A stretch of DNA of 63,874 nucleotides, the filler included, from Thelocarpon superellum (lineage: Eukaryota): the NCBI GenBank assembly GCA_026025795.1. It is 3 parts of 3 records of this genome, joined end to end, with 100 filler letters (N's around TTAATTAATTAA, not from the genome) between each part and the next. Parts side by side here need not be neighbours in the genome. Positions count along the whole stretch, not along the records: positions 1 to 22,492 come from JAPEUG010000295.1; 2 more parts are not named here. One strand, given 5' to 3'. The position numbers and the translations under genes are program-made. Positions 5,210-45,175 of the stretch are shown here, in pieces (the stretch's first letter is position 1; each line of letters starts with the position of its first letter). The notes under the pieces are model-generated. The model had not been told where the DNA came from. It worked only from the letters and a program-made list of their open reading frames with translations, and did not search any database.

Positions 5210-6789
5210 GGTGGAGAAATGGAGGATGAGGAAGGCTTCTGGTTCAGATTATATGTCGGGTATAGAGATGAGAAGCGTTGATGGAGACTGTTGGGTGATG
5301 GTATGAACGAGTGTAACTGTGGACATCGATCGAGTTCTTAACTCCATCGCGGTCAATCATCTCAGTCGTCGGCCGGAAAACGGGTACAGGGGATCTCTTC
5401 ATGGCTTTGCGTTGCAACCCCCCTTCCAACTACCCTCGGAGTGAGCAAGGTTGGATCATATGTTCGCCAAAGGCGCTCATTGCAGCAGGTCTATTATCCC
5501 TGACGTCAGGCCGGCAGTGCTCCGGTTCGGTGAACGGACGTTAAATGTTAATAACGCAGAATCTGCTGATATCGAGGCTGGATTAGGAGGTCCCAGTAGT
5601 CAGCCAGCAGGATCTCAGGACGTGGGCGAGCGCTTAATCGGGCCCGTGCTCGGCTGAGGATTGAGGCGCAAGTCGCGGGGTGTTCACGGTCGAGTCGAGT
5701 CGAGGGCGACTGACGGTGCGGGCCCCACGGCATTCCAAACACGATGGGGAAGTTTCACCAAAGTGCCATACAGCAATAGCATAACAGCAGGACATGCCAT
5801 GTCTCTGTACTAGGTAGGACGGGTATTAAAGTGCCAACACGCTGTAAGCAAGCGCCAGAAGAAATTATGCCACAACAGTAGACAGGTGGCAGGTGCCAGA
5901 GGCGAGGATGGTCGCAATAACTAACATCTGTACATTGACATTTCCCTGTACGGCGCTGGATGACAAACGTGTCGATTGATACGATATGGCCATCGTCACG
6001 TGACTGCTTTGTACACGCTGGAGGACTCGGCATTAAAGTGCACATTCCTTGTGTGGTCAGGCCGCTTTGAGCATGAAGAGCTGGCGCTCAGACTCCATTA
6101 TTGCAGAATTTCATGCCTGCCTATATGCGTAGGCAGGGATAGCATAGATACTCGAACACGTCCCCGTATTAGCCCGCCCAGAACTTATACGGCGTTATGA
6201 AAGCTTCACGGTGGACCAAAATAGACACATCCGTTGCGCATAACGCACGATAAGATCTCTGTCCTCGTACTGGTCAGCAATCACAGACCAGGCGCCTAGA
6301 TATTACGTAGGACCTAGTCTCGAGCTACGCTCCCTGTGCGATCCTATGTCTTTGGGTGACGGGCAACAGTTGCGACGTGAAGACGCTCTCCCGCGTCTCG
6401 GGATTTTGAACGTTGAAGAGTGGGGGAAACTTACTAAGGGGGGTGTCGGAGCTAATCTTGGCTCATTGAGTAGGGGCCGACGTGATAGATAGACTTGAAC
6501 GATTTCCTAAGGTTACTCAAAAGCTTCACTACCTACGATGGAAAAAGAGACTGGTGGATAGGCCGGCCAACGGACAGGCATGTAGGAGAGAGGTGGGGTA
6601 GGATGTAGGAGAGACTTGAAGGAGCGGGACTTGACTGATGAGAAGAACAGTGAAGGGAAGCGGGATTCTGGGAGGAGGAATACGGCTAGGGTGAACATGA
6701 GATAGGGAATGCCACGTCTCAATTAATTTTTCTCTCCCCTCCAAGATCTTGTTTGGCGATCCGTGGCCCTGGAGCGAGTCTGATCTCGT

Positions 6790-11948: not shown

Positions 11949-12474
11949 AGGGTGTGGCGGGCCTGATGACCTTTTCCCGCGTAGAAACCGACTCGAGACT
12001 GGTCAAGGCCATGCTGGCGACCCTGACGTAGCGGCACGATTGAGCTGGACAGCGCTGGGGCAATGCCTCGTCCCGTCTCGCGTGCCTCGCTAAGGCATGA
12101 TTTGGAAGATCTGCTGGCGCGAGGCTTTCATGTCTTTACGGCCCTCGCGCAAGATCGCAACATTCAGGCGGCTCATTATCTGCGATGTTATGCGTCATAG
12201 TAGATGAGAGTCATGTCGTACGCGAAGTGCGACGTGTGAATTTCCACCAAAGATGTGCTGGGTCAGTAGAATCGTGATCACGCGTGCTACAGACATCAAG
12301 TCCCAAAGGAAGACGTGAGGCGATTGCGAGAATGGTCCACCGAGTCGACGCATTAGGCCCTCCTACCGTAGAACTAAAGACGTCGAACCTTGATCGCACA
12401 CGACGGTTGTTGCTTTCACCTCTCAGCCTCTCACGCTCTGAGCGACAGAATGCGCGTCCATCACAGCGTCACCA

Positions 12475-13491
12475 ATGCCGATCTGCATCGAATGCAGATA
12501 TCCTGTGCACCAGCTGTACACAACCTACTCCAAAGCCGACGACCATTCCTCGGGGAAGGGTGTCCGGCTCACACAATGCCCACGCTGCAAGCGCTTCGCC
12601 GACAAATACGTCGAGCATGACTTTGTCGTACTCTTCATCGATCTGGTCCTGATCAAGCCACAGGTGAGCTCGAGCTCCTTTCAGCGGTTCACCGCCGTGG
12701 CTGACGCAGCGGCCGTCGACAGGTATATCGGCACCTTCTCTTCAACAAACTCGGTCGAGAAGATGATCAGTTCGATGTATGGAGCCTGTCCGCAGCATAT
12801 GTAGCTGCCCTGCACTGCCCTGCCCTGCACCGCATGGCGTCTGCTTGCTCACTTTCTCCAGCCCGCCATCGTCCGCCTCGGAGTCTTGCTCCTCCTCTTT
12901 GACGTCTATCTCACGTGGGCGCGCATCGAGAAGCAACTCCCACTCCCGTCATCCGCCACGTCGCCGAATCCCGCGTTCGGCTACCTCGCCGCGCAGCCTA
13001 TCGTCCTACAATATCTCTTCTTCCGTATGTTTCGCCGCCCCTGTCCAGAGAAGCGGTGCTAATGAAAGCCTTGCACACCAGTCTGCCTCTGCCTGACGGA
13101 GTCGTTGGTGTTCCACCTCACCATCCGGCTCTTGACCCAGTTCATGCTGGGATACCCACGACCCAACAGCGTTTCGACAGCGCTGCTCGTGTCGTCGTGC
13201 ACCAAGCTGTTTCCGATCCTGATGGTCATTTGGGACTACGATGTGCCGGCGGCAGCGAAGAGCGTGGGATGGGCTGTCGTCGTCAACAACATCGAGGCCC
13301 TCAAGATCTTGCTCGATTGCGGTTACGGTATGGCGGGCTTCTTGGCTGGTACGGGTGCGTTGGTACGGGTCCTGACCGCCTGGGAGATCCTCAAGGTCGT
13401 AGGGTTGCAGGAAGGTGGCAGTGCCGCTGGAGGGATATGGACGGGGGCGTGGTACTTTTTCCAGTGGGTGAGCGGTAGATGGGCCGGTTGA
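12475..13491 (+). CDS. ARV1: Arv1 sterol homeostasis protein; 4 exons
   Basis: MPICIEC...LTQCPRCKRFADKYVEHDFVVLFIDLVLIKPQ|VYRHLLFN is the Arv1 homology domain. Confidence 0.95.
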
Positions 13492-14121: not shown

Positions 14122-14356
14122 CTTGGAGGACAGGCTGCGCGAGCGTAGGCTGATCGGCGTGGTCGACGCTTCACCTACGACTACGAGGTCGATTTGTGGT
14201 CCGCACTTACTCCTCGCCTGACTTACCCGGCGATGGTGGAGCTTGGACTTGGACCATTCACGAGTGGCTCCTACAGAACTGTCTTCCCAGGGCTACAACG
14301 ACGCGTAAGAGCAATTTTCACAACGCAACTATGTTACTACTTTAGCATTGCCCGGC

Positions 14357-15481
14357 TCAGTTCTCATAATTCAAGCCACTCTCCTTTCGAACGGCGCCAT
14401 ATATCCCCGCGATATCGCCTTTTTCACCCGCGTGTTCTTTGACCTGGGCGAGGTGCGCATCTGCCACTTCTACCGCCTTCATCTGCGCTCCGGCATCTCG
14501 AGCGATTTTCAACGCGTGTCCGGCATCTTTTCGGGCCAGGTCGACCGCGAATAATGGCTGTCAGGAGCTCGGTCAGCCAAACCTCGCCATCCATCGGCGA
14601 TGGCGTATCACCTCTTCACGCTTATAATAGTCGCCGCTACTCAGGCGTTTGGAGTACGCTGAGTAAGGTCCACCGAAGAGGGCATCGACAAACTTTTGGA
14701 GATTCTCCACCCCAAGGCCGCTCTTTTCTGCCACAACGTGCCCCTCTGATAAGGCCTCAACCATGGACAGGATAAGTGTGTTGCCTATGACCTTCAGAAG
14801 CGTCGCCTGACTTGGCGCTTGATTGCTGAAGTCAATCGTGGCTCGCCCGATCCTGGGGACATTAGCAGACGCAGTTAGGGAACCTCACTTGGGCCAGGCA
14901 TACACTCCTGTCAGGTAAGGCTTTACTCGCTCGGCCTGTTCTGCAGGTCCGGCGAGCACACAGATGAGCTACCCAGCATCTGCCATAGCCGGAGCCCCAA
15001 AGACTGCCGAGATCAGACGGCGTCGTGGGACTAGAGAAAAGGCTTACCTGGGCACGCCACAAAGGCCGCCCCATGGCCGTCAATGATCTTGGCCACTTTT
15101 GTTGTCGTGTCCGGGTGTACGGTCGAGCAGTCGACAAACAGCTTTTTGACCATGCTGCAGCCGCGGCTTATAATGTCCAGCACCTCGAGGATATCTTGAT
15201 CGGCGCCGACGCAGGTAAAGATTATGTCCGACTCAGTGACAGCCTTGACCATGTCCGTGCTGATCCTGGACGTGCCGGACGGAAGCTTTGCGCTTAAATC
15301 TTGAGCCCGCTTCGCTGTCCGATTGAAGATGATCAGGGGCTTTGAGAGATCTCCTTTTTCCACAAGATTCTTACACATGCCCTGGGAAAGGTCAACGATA
15401 TTCGTAGGACGTACCTGACGGACAGTGAATGCCTACCCGTCCCATATTCCCCAACCCTATCCAAACCAGTTGAGGAGACAT
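14357..15481 (-). pseudogene. NAD-dependent beta-hydroxyacid dehydrogenase (6PGD/3-hydroxyisobutyrate dehydrogenase family) with one in-frame TAG at 14969-14971; may be recoded or a sequencing error rather than a true pseudogene
   Basis: Motifs WIGLGNMGR|GM, FNRT, FVDCSTVHP, ACP|VFGAPAMADAG*LICVLAGP, LLKVIGN and FAVDLARKD are present. All introns are canonical, and the TAG is the only lesion found. Confidence 0.75.
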
Positions 15482-16087: not shown

Positions 16088-18265
16088 ATGTATTGGAATG
16101 TCTCAGCGAAGGCGTCGAGGGGCGCCTCGCCCAAGGTCAGTGCCTTCGACCCGCAGATCTGATTGTCCTCCGGAGAATAGGCCGTGTTGACCCTTCCGCA
16201 GGCATGCGTGTCGTTGCACTCGGCGGGTACTCAGCGGCGCTGCCCTACCGGAAGAAGCTTCGGCTGCTCCTCCCACGAAGAAGCTCGAGTTCGAGCTCGC
16301 TCCGAGGGTAATTCAAAGAGTGTTCAGCTTCCAAAACGAAGCAAACTGCCGGCTCGAGAAGATCTCAAGAAGGTACAACGGTTTCCAAGACCGGTGACTA
16401 TTCATACCATCCGCTGATCTTTCATGAAGGATCTACTCTGGTCTGTCCTCAATGCAACATCCACCAGGCGGGAGGCGAAATCATACATTTCGAGATTCAG
16501 CCCTTCCCCCCCGCCGGTCAAGATAGGCCAGAAGGTGGGCATTCAAGGGGGACTCGACCTGGACCTACGAGAATTAAACGAAGTTCGTCATTCCGGAGTC
16601 AATCTTGGTTGCCTCTACGCCCTGGATGAGCCGGGACCACAGCCGTCGCCATTCTTGCACGGGCACGCCTCGAGAGCCCACCAAAAGGAGTCCACGGAGC
16701 CAGTGCACGTTGCCCTAATCAAAATCAGGAATCCACAACTTCTTGAAGAGGAGACCTTGAAGGGCATTGGAGGAACCCTTTCACAGCTTCGCCTCCTAGG
16801 GCTCAGCAGCGTCGTGGTGGTCGACAACGCCGGCTACGGCCCCTTTCAGGAAGAGCCACCGCTCATCCTTGAAAGACGTCGTTCAACCATTACGCAGGCT
16901 GACCGGATCGTTGCGGCCATCGCATCCATCGAAGGTACGGCGGCGCGGAAGCTCGACACGGCCATTACTATCTCACCCAAGCTTTCGAGTGGTTCGGCCG
17001 GCAGCCCTCTGGATGGACTCTACGTAGCGTCGCGTGACCAGGTTCTCGCTCCGCTCCGGCGAGGGATCATACCTGTGATCGCCCCCATCGCATACGATTC
17101 GAGCACGCATTCAGCTGTCTCGGTGGATGCCAATGACGTGGTCCTAGCGCTAGCTAAAGAGTTGGCCGGCATCTCCGCCTTGCCCGCCGATAAGGATCCG
17201 GTGGACTTGGCCGCTTATGCCCGATCGCTCCAAGCGGAAGCATCGCTAGATAAGATCATTGTTCTTGACCCGCTTGGGGGGATTCCATCTACCTCGCGAA
17301 GGGATGGGTCTCATGTCTTCATCAACATGGAGCAGGAATACGAGGACATCAAAGATGAATTGAGCGACGCACCGAACAAGCTGACCCACTTGCGGAACCT
17401 TGATCTGGTGCGGCAAACATTGGCGCTATTGCCTCCATCCTCTTCGGCCTTGTTAATGTCTCCCAGCGAAGCAACAGACACGGAGCGCTCGTCAGGAACT
17501 GCATCGACTACGTCGGGTGTTGGCTCACGTCGACGGCGAAATCCATTGGTTCACAACCTACTGACTGACAAACCTTCGTTCTCATCATCCCTGCCCGAAG
17601 GACGGGCAGGCTTTCCGCCCACTTTGGAGGAGAGGCAGGCATTGCCAAGAGCGTCGCCGACGACGTTCGTGAAGCGCGGGATGCCGCTAACCATCCTGCC
17701 CGCGCCGCTCTCCGACGGGTGGCACTCGATTGGTCTCGAAAGGAAGCTGTTGCTCAGTGATGCACGCATCGACCTCCCGCGTCTTATCCACTTAATTGAG
17801 GACTCGTTCAGTCGGAAGCTTGATGTCGAACACTATCTCTCTCGAGTCAATGATCGACTTGCAGGGCTCATCATTGCTGGCGAGTACGAAGGCTGTGCGC
17901 TGTTCACTTGGGAGGAGCCGATCGTGGCTTCTGGCGACTGTGGCGAGCGTCTTGTCCCCTACCTCGACAAGTTTGCGGTGCTCCAGCGGAGTCAGGGCGC
18001 GGGAGGGGTGGCCGATATCCTCTTCACCGCCATGGTACGCACATGTCTTCCCTCGGGCGTCTGCTGGCGCAGTCGGCGGGACAATCCCGTGAACAAATGG
18101 TATTTTGAACGGGCACGGGGCGCGTGGAAGATGGCCGACTCGAATTGGACCATGTTTTGGACGACGCCTGATGTCGAGACGGACGGACAGCTCTTCAGTG
18201 ATTATGAAGATGTCTGTCGGAGAGTCGAGCCCAGTTGGGCACACGCAGGAGCAGTCACAGAGTAG
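16088..18265 (+). CDS. ARG2: Mitochondrial amino-acid N-acetyltransferase (N-acetylglutamate synthase); two short 5' exons, start approximate
   Basis: SVLNATSTRREAKSYISRF, IIVLDPLGGIP, HVFINMEQEY, LVHNLLTDKP and the C-terminal NAT motifs YLDKFAV...WRSRRDNPVNKWYFERA. Confidence 0.93.
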
Positions 18266-22492: not shown

Positions 22493-22592
22493 NNNNNNNN
22501 NNNNNNNNNNNNNNNNNNNNNNNNNNNNNNNNNNNNTTAATTAATTAANNNNNNNNNNNNNNNNNNNNNNNNNNNNNNNNNNNNNNNNNNNN
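22493..22592. other. Artificial contig linker (44 N + TTAATTAATTAA + 44 N)
   Basis: Exactly 100 bp; the central 12-mer places stop codons in all six frames. An identical structure occurs at 45076-45175. Confidence 0.97.
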
Positions 22593-45075: not shown

Positions 45076-45175
45076 NNNNNNNNNNNNNNNNNNNNNNNNN
45101 NNNNNNNNNNNNNNNNNNNTTAATTAATTAANNNNNNNNNNNNNNNNNNNNNNNNNNNNNNNNNNNNNNNNNNNN
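45076..45175. other. Artificial contig linker (44 N + TTAATTAATTAA + 44 N)
   Basis: Same 100-bp structure as 22493-22592. Confidence 0.97.

Follow-up and report, generated by a model that had tools for sequence, protein, structure and literature searches.

The gene for a beta-hydroxyacid dehydrogenase on the minus strand of the window (the whole 63,874-nucleotide stretch of Thelocarpon superellum DNA that was analysed) is interrupted by a single in-frame TAG, and we consider it very likely that this codon is a recent C-to-T nonsense allele, in other words that the gene is an ordinary one that has recently been broken. The window is made of separate contigs joined at N runs (22493-22592 and 45076-45175), so that gene order across them is without meaning; the gene lies in positions 1-22492, which are contig C218. 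It extends from 15481 to 14357 in five exons, with a coding sequence of 921 nt (306 codons plus a TGA) and four introns of 44-55 nt, all GT..AG. Once these are removed, codon 138 is the sole internal stop. The single amber codon, the intron at 15004-15047, the sound downstream splice sites and the normal end had all been described in the earlier note, and these descriptions hold. The features are as follows.

15437..15481, minus strand: exon 1, with the ATG and the GxGxxG nucleotide-binding motif, aligned with homologues
15382..15436, minus strand: intron 1, 55 nt
15048..15381, minus strand: exon 2, NAD_binding_2 (PF03446), Pfam E 1.1e-11
15004..15047, minus strand: intron 2, 44 nt
14904..15003, minus strand: exon 3, which bears the TAG
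14969..14971, minus strand: the premature TAG at codon 138 (of 306), where a close relative has CAG (Gln)
14853..14903, minus strand: intron 3, 51 nt
14612..14852, minus strand: exon 4, including Lys180 at 14794-14792
14558..14611, minus strand: intron 4, 54 nt
14357..14557, minus strand: exon 5, with the normal TGA
16418-18265, plus strand: N-acetylglutamate synthase gene (PF04768), divergent from the dehydrogenase gene

On the other side of the dehydrogenase gene, about 14070-13690 on the minus strand and 12442-13491 on the plus strand hold what we take, from their translations, to be a V-ATPase subunit e-like gene and an ARV1-like gene. No functional link between these three neighbours and the dehydrogenase was seen.

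The assignment to the beta-hydroxyacid dehydrogenase family rests on the pairing of PF03446 with NAD_binding_11 (PF14833), which is encoded by exons 4-5 (Pfam E 3.5e-10). By way of a homologue, P0017, the nearest solved chains are 4gbj, 5je8 and 3pef, all beta-hydroxyacid dehydrogenases, and Lys180 aligns with a Lys of 4gbj and 5je8; it is presumably the catalytic Lys. The protein thus shares both domains, the glycine-rich motif and the conserved Lys with other fungal members and is of similar length (homologues are mostly 289-312 aa), but, unlike them, the Thelocarpon allele is truncated. Searches of the genome with DNA and protein found the gene in single copy with no close paralogue, and a PF03446 search returned just two other genes, both distant, which from reading their sequences we take to be 6-phosphogluconate dehydrogenase-like and 3-hydroxyisobutyrate dehydrogenase-like. 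The gene had been called pristine, which needs a slight correction: of 139 columns conserved at 90% or more, 7 have a non-consensus residue in this protein (median of homologues 3, maximum 18), and codon bias is low.

Splicing around the stop, worked through by hand, was rejected, as an acceptor at the TAG breaks the frame and the in-frame options remove 21 or 23 conserved codons. A public gene model labelled Thelocarpon, P0031, consists of the window's exons but starts at the second Met and omits codons 127-182, Lys180 among them. This skip around the TAG is an annotation artefact, and it is a practical warning to annotators, for the model dodges the stop and so conceals the lesion.

A stop of this kind could be an artefact of sequencing or assembly. 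The evidence on this point comes from contigs assembled from three of five listed runs (X1, X2 and X3) rather than from raw reads, and the X1 sample is a mixture of two haplotypes, both of which leave some room for error; yet an 884-nt contig from X1 crosses the site (14141-15024) at a mean depth of 135 and is identical to the window throughout, TAG included. X1 may be the very sample from which the assembly was made, in which case the contig is not independent support, but its depth rules out the base-calling slip that had been listed among the possible causes, and we regard an artefact of any sort as highly improbable. The TAG belongs to the dominant haplotype of the X1 sample. The sample is not clonal, for a second haplotype is seen over 14995-15109 (depth 50, versus 119 for the first). 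It differs at five positions between 15025 and 15079, and two of these changes are missense; this stretch excludes 14971, and if the minor haplotype bears the TAG too, the stop is older than we suppose. Two short partial X1 contigs with CAG continue into unlike sequence and probably derive from other organisms.

The runs X2 and X3, two samples from one other study, each yield a 278-nt contig over 14848-15125 that differs from the window at 8 positions (about 97% identity) and has CAG at codon 138. The depth of this allele is only 2.9 and it comes from a single study, but it agrees with the consensus of the family. Of the 15 substitution rows for X2 and X3, 13 were scored (two upstream rows were left out), giving 4 non-coding, 5 synonymous and 3 missense changes and the stop. 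Among 120 close homologues the codon-138 column contains Gln in 108, Asn in 5, Ser in 4, Tyr and Glu in one each, and one gap, which is P0031; in a wider set (150 representatives, 80 aligned rows with a residue) it contains Gln in 42, Lys in 10 and ten other residues. Judged by the relative's allele and these alignments, the codon before the mutation was CAG (Gln), as the earlier note had surmised. TAG itself is no likelier than chance among the stops, because single transitions lead to TAG by 6 routes in this coding sequence, to TAA by 5 and to TGA by 6.

Protein sets are unable to show stops, and DNA was therefore scanned beside them. In metagenome_contigs, a DNA pattern that recovers the window's own site and fits 104 of the 120 homologue proteins found no TAG, TAA, TGA or TGG at the codon-138 site; an any-codon version matched at least 117 stretches, and all 80 matches listed have a sense codon there, Gln in 71. 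The stop is thus absent from the relative at about 97% identity and from every other fungus scanned; a private TAG is what the earlier note had expected, on the side of the DNA, of a simple recent pseudogene. Because that near-identical allele keeps CAG, the stop is young. When the window protein is placed in a tree with 24 named homologues, its end branch is 0.29, resembling the 0.22 and 0.26 of the nearest rows, which argues against long decay. Over 105 homologues, identity averages 61% upstream of the stop and 70% downstream. Together with the X2/X3 differences, these values indicate that the gene was conserved until recently and that the stop arose after the split from the near-identical relative. 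Conservation of the remaining gene fits a young stop, but it also fits continued use of the gene.

Under the nonsense-allele explanation, a C-to-T transition would have converted the CAG of Gln138 to TAG in the dominant haplotype. Translation would stop after 137 residues. The product would lack Lys180, the last part of the NAD-binding domain and all of the helical domain, and mRNA from the TAG allele would probably be a target of nonsense-mediated decay. The enzyme, encoded by a single gene copy, is probably dispensable, and the allele would be a null, tolerated either through that dispensability or through its youth. The allele would seem pristine because there has been little time for other lesions to accumulate, and it would be either a newborn unitary pseudogene or a polymorphism with loss of function. 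The derived stop, the open allele and orthologues in relatives and the absence of an intact paralogue are what a unitary pseudogene should display. As far as the accessible part of PMC12311193 describes fungal nonsense alleles and unitary pseudogenes, the likeness lies in a single-copy gene with one premature stop and functional orthologues in relatives; the present gene differs in its one lesion and its open allele in a relative at about 97% identity, which point to the stage of polymorphism and not to a decayed relic. Against the null-allele reading, the want of a close paralogue means that no duplicate would buffer the loss, and dispensability is something that we infer.

Ordinary stop-bearing decay occurs elsewhere in this genome. 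An RCC1-like duplicate (L129:5283-6870; contig C46 at about 65.3-66.9 kb, plus strand) has decayed through frameshifts, two TAGs and a TAA; its counterpart on contig C139 is apparently intact. An ab initio screen for premature stops covered 844 kb of the 19.15-Mb genome; 68 candidates were taken to Pfam, and a domain extended across the stop in 3, of which two proved to be introns and one the decayed RCC1 copy. No second lone in-exon stop was found in those 844 kb, and as the screen misses the dehydrogenase stop itself, no rate can be derived from it.

The cause of the transition could have been RIP, acting by C-to-T change at CpA. The change does turn CpA into TpA, and an orthologue of RID is intact in this genome. 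However, the gene is present in one copy, its RIP indices (0.63 and 1.29) lie within the 5-95% range of 624 sample windows, and only one of five transitions with T on the window side is at CpA, namely the stop itself. A RIP origin is thus largely refuted, and we give it a very slight probability; of the earlier proposal of a very recent inactivation in a RIP context, the recency stands, supported by the CAG of the close relative, and the cause is not supported. The genome contains three cytosine methyltransferase genes, L003 (contig C514, 1246 aa), L004 (C99, about 800 aa) and L005 (C97, 2071 aa), which we take to be probably DIM-2, RID and DNMT5.

A different possibility is that the stop is not effective, because enough Gln is inserted at it, through leaky termination or by a suppressor tRNA, to give useful enzyme, making the gene a pseudo-pseudogene. 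Insertion of Gln at UAG is possible in yeast according to the available portion of PMC4615788, and it would restore the ancestral residue. The base at +4 is a C, on which the proposal of UAG-C read-through had relied, but this C is the first base of a conserved Leu codon and is equally present in 52 of 64 sense orthologues, so that it offers little support. In the same portion of that source, G ranks above C after UAG in yeast, UAG read-through is put at 1-2% in mammalian cells, and the motif UAG-CAAUYA is matched by the hexamer CUCAUC 3' of our stop at 2 of 6 positions. The tRNA evidence points in the same direction: no CUA (amber-suppressor) tRNA is present among 30 tRNA loci, from 63 of 253 candidates scored, and the anticodons of the two Gln tRNA genes, which pattern searches located, are the normal TTG and CTG (the CTG read by eye), although this inventory is incomplete and some interrupted tRNA genes evade the standard tools. 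Moreover, TAG is a working stop in this genome; 96 long ORFs contain 3090 Gln codons and no internal TAG, 28 of the 96 terminate at TAG, and the RID gene also ends in one. The same data led us to reject a variant code with TAG as Gln. In the accessible text of PMC7244557, Ir75a of Drosophila sechellia is likewise a gene with a premature stop that otherwise seems functional, but read-through of Ir75a was shown experimentally and is tissue-specific, whereas the context of the Thelocarpon stop contains no pointer to read-through. On balance, we think useful read-through very unlikely.

Several apparent suppressors were set aside. Two CTA-bearing pattern matches form no tRNA cloverleaf; the ARAGORN calls of tRNA-Pyl(cta) on contigs C124 and C109 appear at lowered thresholds only, one of them from 1 of 95 trial deletions; and the ARAGORN tRNA-Stop(tta) at L041 reads instead as an interrupted Leu(CAA) gene. 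That gene is one of five outside the window with inserts of 50-53 nt in the D or T arm:

L037, contig C290: Ser(GCT) tRNA gene with insert
L039, contig C612: Gly(TCC) tRNA gene with insert
L040, contig C538: Lys(CTT) tRNA gene with insert
L041, contig C304: Leu(CAA) tRNA gene with insert
L262, contig C587: Gln(CTG) tRNA gene with insert

In sequence, the inserts resemble the mRNA introns of this genome, starting with GTAAG or GTACG and ending in YAG, with a branch-like YTRAY 9-11 nt before the end. Once they are removed, ARAGORN calls the Ser, Gly and Lys genes cleanly; the Leu and Gln genes were read by eye. No further gene for these five anticodons was seen among the tRNA loci. Our literature search found no description of mRNA-like introns in tRNA genes; the accessible part of PMC5855946 lists mRNA-type introns for snRNA and rRNA genes. 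These tRNA genes are more unusual than the dehydrogenase stop. A further non-coding element (L263:500-605; contig C109 at about 6250-6355, plus strand) combines a T arm and B box like those of a tRNA with a stem around CT-CTA-A and a T run. It lacks a matching acceptor strand, and at gathering level it matches nothing in Rfam; between 50 and 90 nt upstream of it is a hairpin of 39 nt.

The stop could also be removed from the message. In Fusarium graminearum, premature-stop-correction (PSC) genes are restored in sexual stages by A-to-I editing, and here UAG to UIG would insert Trp and restore the enzyme in fruiting bodies. The likeness to the PSC pseudogenes, so far as the accessible parts of PMC10776026 and PMC11087585 describe them, is a single in-frame TAG in an otherwise intact ORF; PSC stops often descend from codons other than TGG, and a Gln-derived TAG is among the routes listed in PMC10776026. 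According to the same paper, individual species from other classes, as yet untested for editing, also have stops at PSC sites. One PSC gene (PSC61) is an oxidoreductase and the list includes an aldo-keto reductase, but among the 71 genes in the available text, many of them called hypothetical, none is named for the dehydrogenase family. Position 138 tolerates 13 different residues, including Tyr once, and Trp might work there; yet Trp occurs in none of the 200 aligned rows (0 of 120 and 0 of 80), and the stop, unlike those of Fusarium, is not common to relatives. The low codon bias is like that of RID and AMA1 in the same genome.

The context of the edited base gives mixed evidence. With the fold of 30 nt on either side that the accessible part of PMC9600606 uses, the A is predicted to sit in a hairpin loop of 4 nt, but 81 of the 212 A's of the coding sequence are likewise in hairpin loops, and pairing varies with the size of the fold, the unpaired probability ranging from 0.19 to 0.80. 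The U at -1 and G at +1 that had been taken as favourable are brought by any UAG; of the four free positions, each has a base depleted relative to the motif in that source (-2 G, +2 C, +3 U, +4 C).

The lineage and the machinery also argue against editing. The dehydrogenase protein groups (99/97) with those of Sclerophora, Chaenotheca, Caeruleum and Thelocarpon, and the available text of PMC12238968 assigns the latter two to Lichinomycetes. This class is not among the lineages for which A-to-I mRNA editing is described: the accessible part of PMC11156358 reports it from Sordariomycetes and Pyronema, but no editing from Aspergillus or Botrytis. Our literature search found no report of RNA editing in Lichinomycetes. 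Editing is tied to residues MV500-501 of Ame1, in a Tad2-Tad3-Ame1 machinery, in the available text of PMC11087585. The genome has two DUF726 genes, and where Fusarium Ame1 has MV they have AK and SL, as mapped by offset from the catalytic Ser rather than by alignment with a Fusarium sequence; the Ser-Asp-His spacing of the gene at L010 equals that of Ame1 by hand count. Editing that had arisen separately might do without MV.

Two known PSC genes are free of premature stops here. We take the genes in question to be the orthologues of RID and AMA1 from reading their sequences; the RID frame is open, as the TAG within the RID match falls in a 47-nt intron, and the AMA1-like frame is open over 812 aa. 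That TAG and two more in a CDH1-like match were rejected as PSC sites, all being in introns. SPO22 was matched as two fragments, each on its own contig and free of stops, which says little. Taken together, these points make editing of the dehydrogenase stop unlikely, and the Fusarium-type restoration on which the earlier note had laid weight has a correspondingly small probability. We consider it very unlikely that A-to-I mRNA editing arose a third time, after its origins in Sordariomycetes and Pezizomycetes, in the sexual stage of this lichen-type fungus, with the Gln138 amber as a restorative site at birth, segregating against the ancestral CAG. If editing were true, fungal A-to-I mRNA editing would reach a new class, and the segregating CAG/TAG pair could be used to test the origin of edited stops. 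As most likely read, the stop has little significance, being one recent null allele of a single-copy enzyme.
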